DNA of 64,000 nt from Octopus vulgaris (taxonomy: Eukaryota): positions 42,532,001 through 42,596,000 of the forward strand of contig OX597824.1 in NCBI GenBank assembly GCA_951406725.2, given 5' to 3'. Each line of letters starts with the position of its first letter. The first letter of the stretch is position 1. Position numbers and translations under genes: made by a program. The notes beneath the pieces are model-generated. The model was not told the origin of the DNA. It worked only from the letters and a program-made list of their open reading frames with translations, and searched no databases. Shown piece by piece: positions 40,321 through 50,097 of the stretch.

Positions 40321-43045
40321 TTTATACACTGTCCGAAAATGACGTATCGATCAAAATTAATCTGGGATTAAACAACAATAAAAATAATTTAAATCGAATA
40401 CGTGGCCAGTGAGGGGCTGTGCTGCCTATAAAGGGGAAAAAAACTTAGTAAAATGAATTAAATTTCGTTCGTTTTCCGTTAGTTAAGCTGGATTTCTTCT
40501 CTTCTGATGAACCCTTTAAGCCCATAACGTCGATATTTACTTCTCGTGATGGCACAGAAGAATGATTTTACGAATTCTGCTATCTAAACCTTAAGAAAAT
40601 ATCTTAAAGGTTCTGCAATACTATATCTTAGCTCTATGTTAGCTCAATAACTTTAAAAGCCAAATCGATCCACATCAACATTTACATTCACTTTCCCAAG
40701 GTTTCGATTAGCTTATCCCATTTGAGTTGTCTTCCTTGGTTCTTTTAGATTTTAGACATCCCTTAGAGGGATATTTTATTTTCTAATTGCATGAATAATC
40801 TCAGTTACCGAAAGTTTTCAGCTCACCATATTACATACATAAGACCCTTACTGCATGCGTATGTTGGATGGACAAGGCTCTGATGCTGTATTTCCATTTA
40901 GCTATATTGTTGTCGTAGTTGTGCAACAGAAATGTGGCTATGATTTTCTTTTCAATATAAATTGGTCACAAGGCAGCGAGCTGGAAGAATCGTTAGTTTG
41001 CCGGGCAACATTCTTAGCGGCGTTTCGTCCGTCTTTACATTCTGAGTTCAAATTCCACCGGGGTCGAATTTGCCTTTCATCTTTTCGGGGTCCATAAAAT
41101 AAGTACCAGTTGAGCACTGGGGTCGATGAAATTGACTTAACCCCCAGCCACAATTACTGGCCTTATGCCAAAATCTGAAACCGATATAGGTTGATCAAAG
41201 GACTGGCGGTACTCACGTTCTTTAATGGCCTTTATTGTTCACCTTGGATTGTATATTCGTGTTTCTTGGAAAAAGCGTGACTGAGAAGGCAGTTCTGAAG
41301 ATTTACTATGATGGGCAACGTGTTGTTTAATGCATATCTCAGCCAAAGTGCAACTGTGAAAATGAGGGATGAAGAAGAGGAGAGTGGGATGAGGCCTAGG
41401 AGGAATGAATATGCAGCGACGATGTCGTTCACAAGAACAAACACCGTTTAAATTATGATAAAAGAACAGACCAACATATCAGCATGTCTGTGAGCTGGTG
41501 CTTGCAGCATGGTGTTGATGGTGAGTGTATCGTTTCGAATAGTCGAAAGCCGTTTTTTTTGGGGGTTTTTTTTTTGGATGTGGTCTTAGAGGAATAATGT
41601 CTGAATGAGTAAGATACGTTGACAAATAGAACTGATATGGGATTTAAAAAGAAAAAGAAAAGGGCAGGGAAATACTTGATTACTTATTAATAAATAGAGA
41701 ATTATTACTTTAATTGTGGAAAACTGTGTACAAAGTTTGCAATTACATTTAGCTTATCAATAAAAATATATAAGATTCGGTAGATCGTAAGCTTCCAACT
41801 TCTCTACAGGGCTTTCCACTGATATATTAAATCTCAAGTGGAAAGAATAGACATTGGTAATTTAATTAACTATATTTCGAAAGTACAATCATTGTGATTT
41901 CGAATCCCACTGGCATTGTTCTCTCTCTCGACCCCCCTTTTTTTTACTCCCCTTTTCTCTTTTCCTCTCTCTTTCTCTCTCTAATACAAACATCCGCGCT
42001 CGCACACGCTTTCTTTCTTGCTTTCATCCTTTTTTCTATTCGTAAGTGCTTTTTTATAAATTAGTCTTCTATAAAAGAAGATACTCTCTCGCAGCAACCC
42101 ATGTGGCAGCTGCTTTACTGTGAGGGAAGCTCGAGGAAATAATCACGTGACATCAAACCGTGCTAAGTGGTTCAACGTCCTTAATCGTACACTTTGACAT
42201 CTCATCATCCGGTGTAATGCTGGTATTTATTTTAATCAACCTTTTAAAGTTAATGAAATGCAAGGTTGGGTGCTCGAAGGCGCTGAACTTCATATCTGAA
42301 AATGAGTTCAGCTCAAAAGTTTCCAGCCTAAGCTACTTAAGATTTTATAGTTAATTAGTTACGTGGTCTTCCTTTGAATTAATTGGTTCTTCACGTTACA
42401 TCTTAATAATTCTCTTTTAAAGGTTCATACGGAGTTACTTATTAATCTTTCTGCTCATATTGATTTCTCACGCTGTCACAAGGCTTCAGATTTGTTGGGA
42501 AGAGAATAGTTAATTCAATTGACCCTCCCTCCCCCCCACAAATACATGCTTGTTAATTAGTTTATCAGTATTGGCGAGATGAAAGGAACTTCTGCTCACC
42601 GTGTACAGCATTTCTGTTCTTATTATGAGAAATTATTGAGACGAACTATCTTCCGTTGATGTGATTTCGCTCCACTTACATATTTATATTTCATTTTAAA
42701 CTTTTGCATTACACTTTCTCTAAAATATACCCTTGGTTCAAGAAAAACAAAACTGGTTTCGTTTGAAAATTTTGCCAGAAAACGTTCGAAGTTTCCAGAG
42801 GGTTGAATCTAAGATCCGTTTTCGGGTTCTCAGTTTAAGTCAGTTTGCTTTTTGAAGCCGGTGTATGCTAATGCTTATGTTGATCAACATCAAAGAGATG
42901 GACGACAAGATCGATCCCGATGGGACTCTAGCACAGAAGACAAAAATAAATGAATAAATAAATCGCAATGAATAAGTGCTTTACTACTTCTGTAATTTTA
43001 ATATCATATTAATGATTTCTTTTAATATTTACTTACTTACTTACT

Positions 43046-43078
<33 letters not shown>

Positions 43079-43146
43079 AACTACAACTACAACGACGACG
43101 AAGATGACTACTACTACTACTACTGCTGCTGCTGCTACAACTACAG

Positions 43147-43181
<35 letters not shown>

Positions 43182-44325
43182 ACCACCACCTACAGTAATG
43201 CTACCAATAATAATGGTTTCAAATTTTGGCACACGGGCCAGAAATTTCGGGGAAAGTGAGGTAAGTTGAGTACATTGATCCAACAGAAATACGAGATTCA
43301 ATCAAATATTTCCTAACCAGCGACATCTTATCTAAGAGCGAGAGAGGAAGAAAATAATTTACCTTTACTACACAAAAGTGAGATTTTTTTCTAAATGAAC
43401 TAAAAAAATAGTTGAAGAAAGCGTTAACTAATATGTAGGAAAGGTGTGATCATCTGCCGGAGTGGGGCTACATGGGAGTGCTGACTAGGTTGTTTAAAAT
43501 TAAATCGAGATGTTAGATTTGTTGCACATCTGTTCGCAGTCTTATAATGCAATACGTGGTTCATCGGAAAAGTCACTGTCAGTTGACGTTGAGGTGAGGC
43601 TTATCAAATTTGTGGCAGAACACAGGCTGGTGGTGAATGCCGTGAAGCAATTATAAAATAGGAGGAGCCTGTACGGACATCGAAATTTATTTACCCTCCA
43701 AAGAGCACAAGGTCAAGATAGCTTCCCGAGGAACAAATGCCACATTCGAAAAAATCCTGTAAATATGTCTTTAACTTGCCTAAACAGTTTAATTTGAAAA
43801 TTTTGAAAGATGCTACGTATAAAAGCAACAGGAAAGGCATGAATAAGGGAACTCCAGAGGGACAATGTCGGGACAAAAAGACTGGGTGTGCGTGGGGGGT
43901 AGGGTAGTGCGGGGTCTGGGTAGTTGGACACAAGTATGATAAAAGGAGGCTAGGCGAGTGAGTCGAGAATACCTGAGAAGAGAATTCATCAACCAACCAG
44001 CTCTGATGACCTGAGGCCATTAGAATATCGGAAAAAGAGAGGGAGAGAATGAAGCAGTACGCTAGTATGTCGAAGGCTGGAGTATATCCTAAATTAATTT
44101 ACATCAGTCAAGTGTCCAAAGCTAGTGTCATACCTATAAAGAAACAACAACTTTGTCCCTTCCCTCGCATATTAATTGATTGGAGAGAAGAAAAATCTAT
44201 TTATGATAATTCTCTCGGAAAGAGAAGACACTAAATGAATAAATGAATAATTATCCAAGTTATGACTACCTCCTTCTTCAAATATATCATAAATAGTTTA
44301 TTTATAGGAAATTCATGCCATATGG

Positions 44326-44388
44326 TGCTATTAAGTTAGACATGGCCTGGGCCAATAATGGCCGAAACCTATCAAAGTATCAAAGTAT
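44326..44388 (+). mobile_element. Mini-element / LINE 3' tail with (TATCAAAG)n
   Basis: Near-identical copy at 50958-51028; hairpin GGCCA-ATAA-TGGCC followed by 8-bp tandem tail. Confidence 0.65.
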
Positions 44389-44479
44389 GTGAGTTAGTTT
44401 AAAAATTTAGATTTGTACTGGGAAGAAAATTTCTTTGTTATTTCGAATCTATGTGTTTATGTGTGTATGTGTGTGTATA

Positions 44480-44518
<39 letters not shown>

Positions 44519-44616
44519 GTCTGTCTGTGTCTGTCTGTCTGTCTGTATGTATGTGTATTGAATCTTTATATAAAATCTCTACACCACTTCCAACAACCTC
44601 TTCGAGAAGGAGAGAA

Positions 44617-44651
<35 letters not shown>

Positions 44652-44944
44652 TTGACGAAAGTAGCCCCTGTTCTTGCTAACCTAATAATGTGATATTTTG
44701 AATTCACTATATATAAAGCGTCACTTCAAAAATATGGATATCCATTTCACCATTATATAAGAGAGAACTGGAAAAGAAATCTGGATTTATCATTCGGAAG
44801 GAGACTTTTGGAAAACCTTTGGAATTTAAATCAATACTAAATAGTATAAACCCTAATATTCAGTTTACAGTGGAATATGGCAAAGAACAGCTTCCTTTTT
44901 GAGATATTCTCATAAAAAAGTCAACAATCAAATCTTAATTGACA

Positions 44945-46120
44945 TCTCTTATTATAAAAGGCAGATTTTATCTGCCTCCCTTTGGGAGTTATACAAATCT
45001 ACAATATAGGATTTCTTCAATTACAATTTACCTAGCAGTTTTAAGAGTACAATGCATCGCGTCATGCCAGGTCCAGTTGTTAAAATTTAAACTCCAATTA
45101 AGCAAAATTTACAGAAAACTCACATTCTGGTGTGTGTGTCAAATGCTTTTCTTAGTCTGGTTTACACCACACGCAAACGCACACACACAGTGGGCAACGA
45201 ATAAAATGAAAGTAAATGTAATATTTATTTCTGTCTATCACGCTGATAGATACATGAGTAAAATGTATGGGAAGCTAACAGATAACAGTGAGTGAAAATG
45301 TTCTTGGAAGAGAGTAAATTAGCGACAGTGATTTGAGGAAGACTAAACTGAAACTATGAAACAGTGTTTATGTATAAACAGACGACACTTATATAAACCC
45401 TTTCGTTACCAAACCGCCCGAATTTACCTATTCATATTTAAATGAGAATATCAGAGTAAATCTCTTTAGTACATTCGTGAAAACACGTATTATACTTCGT
45501 AAACACTTCAAATACAGTTCTGTACAAAAATCGAAGTGTAATTTTAATTCCGTGAATTATGGGAGATTTTTTTTCCGAAATTTGTTCCTATTGTGTTTTC
45601 AAAATTTGTAATTCTGACAAAAAATGGATACGAATTTCATTATATCAAGCAGCGAGTCAGAATTCGAAGGATTTTCTACTGAAGACCTTCATAAATCTAA
45701 CTCTATGACTGAAAAAAAAAAGCATCTTTATATAAGAGTGAAGTTGTGTGTCTGTCCCCTTCGATTTACATTCGTAATTACTCCCACATTTTGCGGTGCA
45801 GTTTAACCAAAAGCGGGTATCTTATAGTCGTGATTCATATCGAGCCCTTCTGGGTATTAGCGCGCGTCTACGATGAGTCTACGATTTTAAAAAAATTTAC
45901 CATCATATTTTTCCATTTTAATGCATTTTTTTCGCTTTTATATAAGGGAAGTAACTCTCTAAAAATATCTACGATGTGTCAACGATTTAAAAAAAATTTA
46001 CCTTAATTTTTTTTTCAATTTTTAATGCATTTATTTTGCTATTTTTTGGCTATAACTCTCTAAAAATGCTTATATAGTTATTTCCCTTACAACCCGAGCA
46101 ACGCCGGGCGATACTGCTAG
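44945..46120 (+). mobile_element. Composite non-autonomous Helitron
   Basis: A|TC start at 44945; second TC..TATATAA start at 45725; hairpin CCCGAGCAACGCCGGG and CTAG|T end; no TSD. Excision restores GAC ATT TAT CAT AAA CCA (DIYHKP). Confidence 0.88.
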
Positions 46121-47170
46121 TTTATCATAAACCAACGGACTCGAAGCAATATCTTCCTTTTAGCTCTTGCCAACCGAAACACATCAAAAGAAATATCCCC
46201 TTTAATTTAGTGAAAAGGATTTACACAATAGTGTCTGATGGAAATACTCTGGACCTCCGTCTTCAAGAACTCAGAACAACATTAACTGAGAGACACTATC
46301 CATCCTTACCTAGAGAGGATGGAATTAAACGTGGCAAGAAAATAAGCATTAAGATACTAAGGGAAGCAAAACGAAACACCACACCTCACCTCAAAATACT
46401 ACCGTATATATATCAACTCAGAACCCTAGAAACAATGAGGCATACAACCCTATTGTACAAAATCTACCAATGCTCAGTGGGAATCAAAAAGTGAGCAACA
46501 TTCTGAAAACACATAAATTCATCAAATGTAAAAAGCAACCCAAATCGCTGAAAAGAATTCCAATTTGAACAAGGAGAGTGGTTCACAATTAAGACCAACT
46601 TGACTTGTGCATCCGAGAATTCAATTTATGTTATAACTTGTTCATGTTGTAGATATAACTATATAGAACAGACAAGTATGGCACTTAGACGAAGAACCAC
46701 ACTACATAAGGAACAGATCCGTTTCCCAAAGTATTGACAGATACATTCGAGTGAAGGCATAGAGAGACGTGCAGAGAATCTCCAATCAAATTTTACAGTT
46801 TTTCCTTATCTACCAGTGCAAAGAAACAATTTCTGTACATGAACGTTTAAACAAAGAAAATTTATTTATCGAAAAATACAGAACATGCCTAAATCTGAAC
46901 GCATAACCAACTTTGGTCTCAGTATATATTTTAATCCATGATTACATATCTATCACTGTACATATTTCATCTCACAACTTTAGCTTATGAATTTTTGTAT
47001 GGTTATTTATCCCACCCCAAAAATGAGCAATTACCTCCCCTGTCCCGAGTAATAACTATCATCAATTACCTCCCCTTAGATTTTTCTACTTGTTCATTTA
47101 TTCACAGACTTTCATACAAGAAAATGGACTAAAACTTTCTTAAGAAAATACGAAATTACAATAACTTTAA

Positions 47171-47203
47171 TGCCATGATTAGCGAAAGCAAAACCGGTCG
47201 ACA
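47171..47203 (+). ncRNA. Minimal hammerhead, A3-U8 variant (G12A in this copy)
   Basis: TGCC ATGATTA GC GAAA GC AAAA C CG GTC GACA. Confidence 0.6.
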
Positions 47204-47396
47204 ACCACAATACTCTTTCCTTTAGAATATATTAAAACTATGTAAACCATGTGCATTTTCCATATTTTATATATACCTACATGCATGCATACATGCATAC
47301 ATACATACATGCATATATATATATATAACAAAAAATAAGGATAATGCACACAGTTTACATAGTTTGAATATATTTTAAATGAAAGAGTTTTGTGGG

Positions 47397-47429
47397 TGCC
47401 GACCGGTTTCGCTTTCGTTAATCATGACA
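47397..47429 (-). ncRNA. Minimal hammerhead, A3-U8 variant (G10.1A in this copy)
   Basis: TGTC ATGATTA AC GAAA GC GAAA C CG GTC GGCA, within the inverted copy (47320-47459) of 47142-47273. Confidence 0.65.
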
Positions 47430-47460
47430 TTAAAAATGATTGTAATTTCGTATTTTCTTT

Positions 47461-47539
<79 letters not shown>

Positions 47540-48414
47540 AAATGGATAGATACATGGACGTGTGTGAGTGTAGATACACACACACACGTGTGTGTATATA
47601 TATATATATATATATCATATATATATTATATATATATGTGTGTTTGTGTGTGTGTATATAATATATGTATGTGCCAATTATTCCTTTGATACATGCTTGG
47701 ATTTGCAGGATATCTGACACGGGTGAACTACCCTTTCACCTCTACATTGATCACTGATTTGTAAGTATAAATTACCAGAAATATTTGGAATAAGCTGTGC
47801 TGCCAAAACGTGTGGTCTGACCCGTTGTTGATTTCATGTGATCTGATTTAATCGATACCCTACTTCCTTTTTACTATACATATATATATACATGCGTGCG
47901 TGTGTGTGTGTGTGTGTGTGGAGGGTTATTTCATGACGATGAAACTTAATATTTATACTAGTTGTAGAATCCGTGACATTCATACAATCTCAGAAGTCTT
48001 TAATAACCCGAGTGAAAGAAATTGTGGTTCAGAACAGAAATTGATTCATGGTGTCAATTGGATCGAGAACTTTCCACCAAAGTAGTCGTTTGTGTGCCAT
48101 ACTTCTTTCTGTTTATTATTACATAACACTGATCTGTATGTTTGTAATAGCCTCTCTCTCTCTACACACACACGTGGTGTATGTGTGTGTATGTGTGTGT
48201 GTGTGTGTGTGTGCGTGTGTGTGTGTGCGTGTGTGTGTCTATGTATCTGATTCTACATATATGCATCTACATACACCCTTTCCTCTCTATTGAAGTGGGT
48301 TTTGTTTCCTTGTGCTGTATTATGCATGTCTTTTTTCCTTATTTCATTTGTATACGTGTATACATATGTTCTATTTAAACATTCATGTGTTCATGTCTCC
48401 TTGTATACGGATTC

Positions 48415-48499
<85 letters not shown>

Positions 48500-48570
48500 T
48501 GTATGTATGTATGTATGTATGTATGTATGTATGTATGTATGTATGTATGTATGTATGTATGTATGTATGC
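48415..48570. repeat. (TA)n-(TATG)n microsatellite
   Basis: Direct. Confidence 0.95.
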
Positions 48571-49294
48571 ATGCTTATATGGGTGGGCATATGTGTATAC
48601 ATGGGTGCTGTGTGATTATGCGTCCAGACGGATGTGCAAACAAAAAAATTGACAAAATATCGTCAGTGTGTGAACCCAAACCGGCCCACCCATCCTCGTT
48701 GCAAAGATGCTCCATTCTACCCTTCCAATTCTTTCTTTACACCACGCCACCGATCCCTCGCCCAACAACTCCACTGTAGCCGAATTCCTGTCATTTTGTT
48801 GAACTACTCCCTTTTCTTCTTCTTTTCCCATCATTATTTCCCCTCTTCCAAACTCTTTTTCTCTCTCTCTCTCTCTCTGTTCCTTTGCTCCGCTCACCTC
48901 CCCTGTATTCCAGCATCCCTCCTCCTCCACACATGACACTTCCCATGCCATCACCTCCATTATTCCATTCCTGTTCTGCACATTCATTTCCAACCCTCTC
49001 ACCTTCCTCTTTAACTAGCCGCTCGTTCACCACTCTCCATCTTCACTCTCCACTCTCCCACAAAAGCCAACTTTTTCACTCTCCACTCTTCACTCTCCAC
49101 TAACCTCTTCTTCATCACCGTCATTTTCCAAACTACCACTATCAACCATAGTACACCTCACAATTGTATTGTTTTGTTCTTTATTGTTTTTATTCATCAT
49201 TTTTTTATATCTCTATATATTCTCTTTCTCCTTTGGTGTCTGTCTCGAAGAGCTCCTCTTCCTGTTGTTGCCCAGACTAGTCAAGTTTTGGCTT

Positions 49295-49358
<64 letters not shown>

Positions 49359-49555
49359 CCACCACCACCACCATCATCATCATCGATATCATCATCGTCG
49401 TCGTCGTCGTCGTCGACGTTGATCTTCGTTATCATCACCATTATCATTATCACCAACATTATATAATAATAATAATAATAATAATAATAGTAATAATATT
49501 AATAATAATAACAACAACAATGATAATAAAACCATCAGCATTATCACCATCATCT

Positions 49556-49610
<55 letters not shown>

Positions 49611-49645
49611 CATCATCATCATCATCATCATCATCATCGTCGTCA
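49295..49645. repeat. (CAT)n/(CAC)n/(CGT)n/(TAA)n/(TTA)n trinucleotide mosaic
   Basis: Direct. Confidence 0.95.
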
Positions 49646-50097
49646 TTGTTATTCTTCTTATTATGAAATAGGCAGTGACCATTTTAATGGTGTCATTGGC
49701 AATAGCTGCTTCTTTACGGACTCCTGACCACGAAAGTCTTCTGCGAATGATTATGTGTTTGCAAGCATGTGATTTTCAGTGTGTGTGTGCGTGTGTCTGA
49801 GCGCACTCGCGTATGTGTATGTGTGCGTGTGTGTGTAAGTCTGCGTGATTGTGTGTGAGTGTATTTAATTAGGGTGTGTTTATGCATGTGTCTATGAATC
49901 TGTGTGTATTTATGTTTGTTGCATGTATATATATATATGTGTGTGTGTGTGTGTATGTGTGTGTGCGTGTGTGTGTGTGTGTGTTTGCGTATGTTTGCAT
50001 ATATGTACGACTAAATATGTTTATTGACACATATATGCATATATAGATATATACATGTAGATACATATATACATGCATATATATAGTATATGTTTAT

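Follow-up and report, generated by a model that had tools for sequence, protein, structure and literature searches.

The analysed stretch of DNA, hereafter the window, is 64,000 nt long and comes from Octopus vulgaris (contig OX597824.1, positions 42,532,001 to 42,596,000, forward strand). It carries the remnant of a Penelope-like element (PLE) and, behind it, a second copy of the element's terminus (Table 1). The two inverted arms, 47142–47268 (+) and 47332–47459 (−), are 87–88% identical and stand tail-to-tail around a microsatellite, as had been described in the initial annotation. About 100 nt of the element, including the CX4CxxC linker, are deleted near 46555. The insertions nested in its ORF are younger, and parts of them (44944–45344 and 45729–46120) match other loci at 91–97%; one part starts with a TCT/ATT boundary.

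Table 1. Features of the PLE remnant and of the inverted terminus, in window coordinates
Feature	Position	Strand	Remarks
End of RT domain, frameshifted; start of the 5'-truncated element, just after a (GA)n tract	44655..44945	+	From translation, blastn to family copies and tblastn
Later insertions of other repeats, splitting the ORF	44946..46120		44945 joins 46121 directly in family copies
Remnant of RT thumb and GIY-YIG endonuclease, with stops and frameshifts	46121..46906	+	Ends with TAA at 46904–46906
3' UTR/pseudo-LTR (pLTR), subfamily S1	46907..47270	+	Its end is the first of two (TA)n end points used by the family
Hammerhead motif copy 1, minimal type I	47171..47203	+	A3 = 47175, U8 = 47180
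Palindromic helix III of copy 1	47193–47198	+	Predicted cut between 47199 and 47200
TA/TACA microsatellite between both tails, 63 nt	47269..47331		Insertion target type of the family
Second terminus copy, 128 nt, 5'-truncated, tail-to-tail	47332..47459	−	Probably a separate insertion
Hammerhead motif copy 2	47397..47429	−	A3 = 47425, U8 = 47420; predicted cut between 47401 and 47400

Each arm encodes a 33-nt hammerhead-like motif, which reads TGCC ATGATTA GC GAAA GC AAAAC CG GTC GACA in copy 1 (47171–47203, plus strand) and TGTC ATGATTA AC GAAA GC GAAAC CG GTC GGCA in copy 2 (47429–47397, minus strand). The initial annotation was right that ATGATTA is present in both, and its distance of about 270 bp from the GIY-YIG stop agrees with the 265 nt measured from the TAA. 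It had also assigned one different G-to-A core lesion to each copy. The two lesions do differ, being G12>A at 47190 in copy 1 and G10.1>A at 47418 in copy 2, but the latter breaks the closing pair of stem II and is not strictly a core change. Neither is the single lesion of its copy, as T>C at 47173 breaks a stem I pair in copy 1 and A>G at 47399 leaves a stem I wobble in copy 2. The perfect minimal hammerhead read from the two copies stands as the family consensus, with cleavage as a prediction, but its Y and R are copy-specific changes; stem I of the family is TGTC/GACA when family copies are compared. Copy 1 alone fails the conserved-core test because of G12>A, and in homodimer folds of both window copies the double hammerhead is not the best fold. 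The two window copies are probably inactive. An Rfam scan of 42000–50000 gave 74 matches at E ≤ 10 with no hammerhead family among them, both scanned copies carrying lesions, and the assignment to hammerheads is therefore made by fit to the consensus and by covariation.

Near-full copies of the family (L106–L117) align along a 753-aa relative, P0006, and encode a single ORF with GLKF, DKG and RT motifs, a CX4CxxC linker and a C-terminal CCHH GIY-YIG domain. Homologous proteins carry PF00078, PF26215 and PF01541, and PLE proteins of this genome match octopod entries. Pfam GIY-YIG scored E = 2e-4 and 22.1 bits on family copy L048, just below the cut-off of 22.6; three RT/thumb fragments gave no Pfam match, and none of the family copies examined retains an intact ORF. 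L123, L136 and L141 carry a 5' pLTR in which this hammerhead recurs. The element ends at one of two (TA)n end points that are separated by about 50 nt, with an optional tail, and truncated copies occur inverted. The CX2-5CxxC linker before the endonuclease is kept in family copies and lost by deletion from the window copy; according to the accessible part of Craig et al. 2021 (PMC8557442), it is absent in Penelope/Poseidon. By the features described there, which also include the C-terminal GIY-YIG with CCHH, the DKG and GLKF motifs, (TA)n targets and inverted truncated copies, the family is more probably of the Neptune than of the Nematis type, an assignment made by described features, as the trees contained no named reference elements. 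Unlike the Neptune clade as presented there, its ribozyme core is non-canonical and would be missed by a CUGANGA descriptor. In the tail region, which separates hammerhead and ORF start, the second of the (TA)n end points is flanked by two CACGTG palindromes (L123:1090–1180 oriented, L120, L136 and L141). By analogy with the anole element, this region may possibly form a stem-loop where reverse transcription starts.

The A3-U8 pair is the state of the whole Penelope-like family. In the 2.8-Gb genome searched, a pattern with positions 3, 7 and 8 left free gave 58 exact matches (49 A3-T8 and nine single mismatches), another genome-wide pattern gave 177, and A3-T8 combined with the family stem II gave 282; the control was 0 each time, so the motif is not a chance occurrence. 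No other Watson-Crick 3-8 pair was present among the 58 matches, as counted from the list. Matches with both positions changed numbered only two, G3.A8 and G3.G8, neither of which pairs (control 0). In 115 distinct collected copies, A3-T8 was found in 98, C3-G8 in none and any other Watson-Crick pair in none, in a set that was partly pattern-selected and included loci fetched on purpose for an odd position 8; the fairer counts are therefore those from sets collected without selection by motif pattern, 26 of 29 for ORF-anchored copies and 32 of 35 for BLAST-anchored ones. The core is fully intact at its conserved positions in 51 of the 115. The BLAST-type genome search returned 1089 candidates, and the 40 that were scored have 82–90% identity.

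These counts bear out the proposal of the initial annotation that A3-U8 belongs to a specific PLE family. The case that it had named against itself, family members with CTGATGA, did not appear: C3-G8 was absent from the 58 pattern matches, the two doubly changed matches and the 115 copies. Among 38 copies without A3, the letters are G (18), C (12) and T (8), scattered over the subfamilies in a way that matches decay from A. A C3-U8 intermediate subfamily was considered and is unsupported by these letters.

Two comparisons with the window used 1156 and 1363 contigs of other data sets. These carry the family letters at the window lesions 47173 and 47190, and the rows listed show no other letter at 47175 and 47180. 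T>G occurs in the comparison at 47057 alone, so that G8 at a share of 10% or more is excluded. No relatives were found in the viral contigs searched. Canonical minimal-hammerhead matches in the octopus genome number 507 (control 41), and A3-U8 is therefore not a genome-wide habit.

Each window copy differs by about 7% from the S1 subfamily consensus, and one derived change is common to both. Among 56 other copies, all of which retain the motif, 23–25% are as close or closer to either window copy than the two are to each other (87.7% identity). With one common derived change, this indicates that both inherited the pair from the family master. The initial annotation had placed A3-U8 before a local duplication of the terminus; the copies look like independent family members, and a local duplication is unsupported by the divergence and derived-change comparison, so that its argument adds nothing. 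Among the first 100 of the 282 A3-T8 matches, counted by eye, eight inverted pairs are head-to-head, the usual inverted arrangement of the family, and none is tail-to-tail. The window copies most plausibly represent two insertions at the same TA-rich site, with a single event followed by decay as a possible alternative origin.

In hammerheads generally, the 3-8 pair positions the general-acid residue and is among the most conserved features. In this family, C3 and G8 of the CUGANGA identity are lost and the 3-8 pair is Watson-Crick as A-U, while U4 G5 A6, A9, G12 A13 A14, A15.1-U16.1 and H17 show no difference among the three subfamily consensuses. These consensuses differ at 0 of 11 core and at 1–2 of 31 motif positions, against 14–22% in the flanks (gaps excluded), which is a modest excess of conservation in the motif (Fisher p 0.035–0.074, gaps excluded). 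Changes between subfamilies are confined to free positions, namely N7 (T or A) and one stem I pair that changes in a compensatory way; within S3, copies also vary in loop II. The stem I pair is G-C in 80 copies, A-T in 24 and mixed in eight (Fisher 2e-16), in counts that come from copies sharing ancestry. In 27 chosen motif rows, which share ancestry and were picked for a fitting motif, the 3-8 pair is C-G in 17, A-U in six and U-A in four and is never unpaired, and helix III is palindromic in all 27. Active masters have more probably been under selection for the fold.

The stems are very short, with 4 bp in stem I and 2 bp in stem II, and in the computed folds it takes two molecules to form the 6-bp helix III, ACCGGU. 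The minimum-energy homodimer of the intact S1 copy L002 is the double hammerhead, at −14.9 kcal/mol, and its monomer with helix III closed is at +2.7 kcal/mol. The intact S3 copy L073 folds best into another dimer (−12.7 kcal/mol), and its double hammerhead, at −11.1 kcal/mol, lies 1.6 kcal/mol higher.

It is conceivable that the motif had already lost its function and that both letters of the 3-8 pair changed by chance and were spread by a single successful master lineage. The borderline excess of motif over flank conservation would fit this, as would an AT-rich genome in which A and T are favoured. Both positions have changed, yet they stayed complementary, and did so twice in one clade; stem I also changed in a compensatory way, and the core shows 0 of 11 differences while the flanks diverged. 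We regard a chance origin as very improbable.

Related loci from metagenome and genome contigs (n = 57) comprise 30 with C3-G8, which come from other animals, two doubtful (L205 with U3.G8 and L206 with U3-A8) and 25 without a call; the C3-G8 labels were given by script and, for 24 loci, by eye, and several stand for redundant contigs of one family. Weak antisense A-T matches in L231 and L241 were judged to be chance. Several of the related loci share the TGYC/GRCA stem I and the ACCGGT helix III with the A3-U8 family. Protein searches with two octopod homologues in the genome of the window revealed three sister families, A, B and C, which all carry U3-A8 at the same place together with a palindromic helix III. 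Family A is young, has intact ORFs and has the core TTGACAA; family B is young, with TTGAAAA; family C is older, with TTGATAA in one of three copies and single decay changes in the other two. The nearest relatives carry U3-A8 and not C3-G8, a point missed by the initial annotation. A search for RNA data sets with the pLTR of a young U3-A8 family as the query listed none that contains it.

In a quick maximum-likelihood tree of 49 rows (a hand-picked subset with a quick search, SH-aLRT support only and midpoint root), the window copy falls within the A3-U8 clade (SH-aLRT 99). This clade groups with family B and P0004 (SH-aLRT 99) in a three-way fork without internal resolution, and the group nests in a clade with families A and C (96). 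All C3-G8 rows fall outside the U3-A8/A3-U8 clade (100). The same nesting was obtained in a second quick tree, from which rows under 400 residues were left out. By parsimony, the likely path is a change of C-G to U-A at the base and of U-A to A-U on the branch of this family, an order that we only infer, since the tree is midpoint-rooted and several closely related proteins (P0004–P0010) come without DNA context.

In family B (L345–L349, e.g., G000:C3:148377500-148386500), which of the relatives known stands closest to the A3-U8 family in the tree, helix II comprises 4 bp and position 17 is an A. The doubtful U3-A8 motif of the metagenome contig L206 (3610–3979) belongs to an element that the tree places well apart from the octopus clade; provided that the motif is genuine, it would represent an independent origin of U3-A8 there.

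For metazoan PLEs, C3-G8 and U3-A8 have been reported in minimal type I hammerheads (Cervera and De la Peña 2014, PMC4209133). As far as that account is accessible, the octopus motifs share with them the position in the pLTR, a short helix I, a small palindromic helix III, a predicted action as dimers, the G10.1-C11.1 pair and many truncated copies. They differ in the A3-U8 core, which is present in none of the Fig. S3 rows examined, and in having a 2-bp helix II and no extra base after A9, whereas the Schistosoma mansoni families of the same account have 7–8 bp and a bulge. Natural U3-A8 is represented by Schistosoma Cercyon PLEs (PMC4209133), and U3-A8 variants appear also in the accessible text of Perreault et al. 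2011 (PMC3088659). The octopus family resembles these variants in natural Watson-Crick covariation at 3 and 8, its sister families being exactly U3-A8, but its polarity is opposite (purine at 3), fixed in the family and nested among U3-A8 relatives. With the Poseidon element PAc of Anolis carolinensis, as described in the available portion of Frangieh et al. 2024 (PMC11167929), it shares a pLTR hammerhead close to where the ORF begins, a pair of end points with an optional tail and AT-rich targets. PAc is a Poseidon with C3-G8 and an ORF that starts inside the ribozyme, whereas this family is of the Neptune type, with the ORF starting about 170 nt downstream.

Swaps of the 3-8 pair have reportedly been assayed in vitro by Przybilski and Hammann (2007). 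No natural A3-U8 hammerhead, from octopus or otherwise, was found in the literature search, with Lünse et al. 2017 and Nelson and Uhlenbeck 2008 lying outside its coverage. The family-wide natural A3-U8 is thus provisionally new to the literature, U3-A8 being already known.

We hold it likely that the window carries two decayed end-repeat copies of an old Neptune-type PLE family that has A3-U8 throughout, flipped from U3-A8, and for which slow self-cutting as a dimer is predicted. The ancestral U3-A8 would have flipped on the branch of this family. In this model, the family RNA would cut slowly after C17 as a dimer, pLTR-ORF-pLTR transcripts would presumably be the substrate, and the protein of the element may possibly help. 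According to the accessible parts of the two papers, cleavage by PLE hammerheads is weak even in the dimeric form (PMC4209133), and their activity is described as weak, dimeric or protein-assisted (PMC4209133, PMC11167929). The anole PLE hammerhead is reported to need protein, while in the in vitro assays presented its ribozyme mutants insert unimpaired and no reads end at the cut (PMC11167929).

A different reading is that the fold has been kept for a non-catalytic job, such as RNA dimerisation or a handle for protein, and that A3-U8 is catalytically dead or negligible. In the full double-mutant scan of a type III hammerhead, as far as the accessible data of Roberts et al. 2023 (PMC9901934) go, only the G:C swap rescued the 3-8 pair and all other double mutants in the motif were low; the low A:U and U:A swaps would speak for this reading. 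The same holds for the anole PLE, which in the available account inserts in vitro without need of cleavage (PMC11167929), and for Naiads, which are described in the accessible source as spreading without canonical hammerheads. A fold kept for structure alone does not sit well with G12, the GAAA stretch, U4-G5-A6, A9 and a non-G at 17 that are constant in all subfamily consensuses, nor with a 3-8 pair that is still Watson-Crick after two double changes. The tertiary 3-8 pair is moreover part of the active conformation, according to the accessible part of PMC3884650. A non-catalytic role is considered rather unlikely, and should A3-U8 not cut, the fold would still suggest a structural one.

The letters A3-U4-G5 spell AUG, and A3 might have been favoured as the start of the PLE ORF or of an upstream ORF removed by self-cleavage. 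In the anole PLE, the ORF starts within the hammerhead according to the available text (PMC11167929), and here the core AUG opens a frame of 16–18 codons in all three subfamilies. That frame closes after these 16–18 codons, no conserved splice acceptor that could link it to the main ORF was seen in the 5'-pLTR copies L123, L136 and L141, and the U3-A8 family A shares the downstream start context yet has no core AUG. The core AUG as the PLE ORF start is ruled out, as in these three copies the main ORF begins about 170 nt farther downstream. Selection for AUG in either form has very little probability.

Returning to the slowly cutting dimer, a more far-reaching version is that one retrotransposon clade has moved its 3-8 pair through C-G, U-A and A-U while mobile, acting as a protein-chaperoned dimer whose rate would be set by the RNP and not by the core. 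This we put forward tentatively, as a possibility with the balance against it. If it were true, a family would have stayed mobile with an A-U state that is near-dead in free-RNA scans, and consensus-based searches would overlook whole families. In a bolder version still, the AUG of A3 would be an upstream start removed by cleavage.

Families with C-G, U-A and A-U in one clade, among them U3-A8 sisters from the same genome that are young and intact, form a natural series. This series addresses whether PLE hammerheads must cut, how fast they do so, and whether the protein of the element rescues them. CUGANGA descriptors undercount PLE ribozymes.

Some further observations concern the relatives. 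In family A (L283 = G000:C13:52239500-52249000; L280–L291 and L250–L279), 110 near-identical copies were scored. Its 3' UTR contains about 2 kb of TG/TA microsatellite-like sequence common to the copies, and the element therefore spreads simple-repeat DNA through the genome. Helix II is closed by a U.U mismatch at 10.1/11.1 in place of G-C in L207, L209, L219, L223, L249, L283 and other relatives. Tandem arrays with a spacing of about 359 nt carry one canonical C3-G8 hammerhead per unit, with the same ACCGGT helix III, and are retrozyme-like; examples are L153–L159 (G000:C1:20002278-20004542) and many other canonical-match sites.
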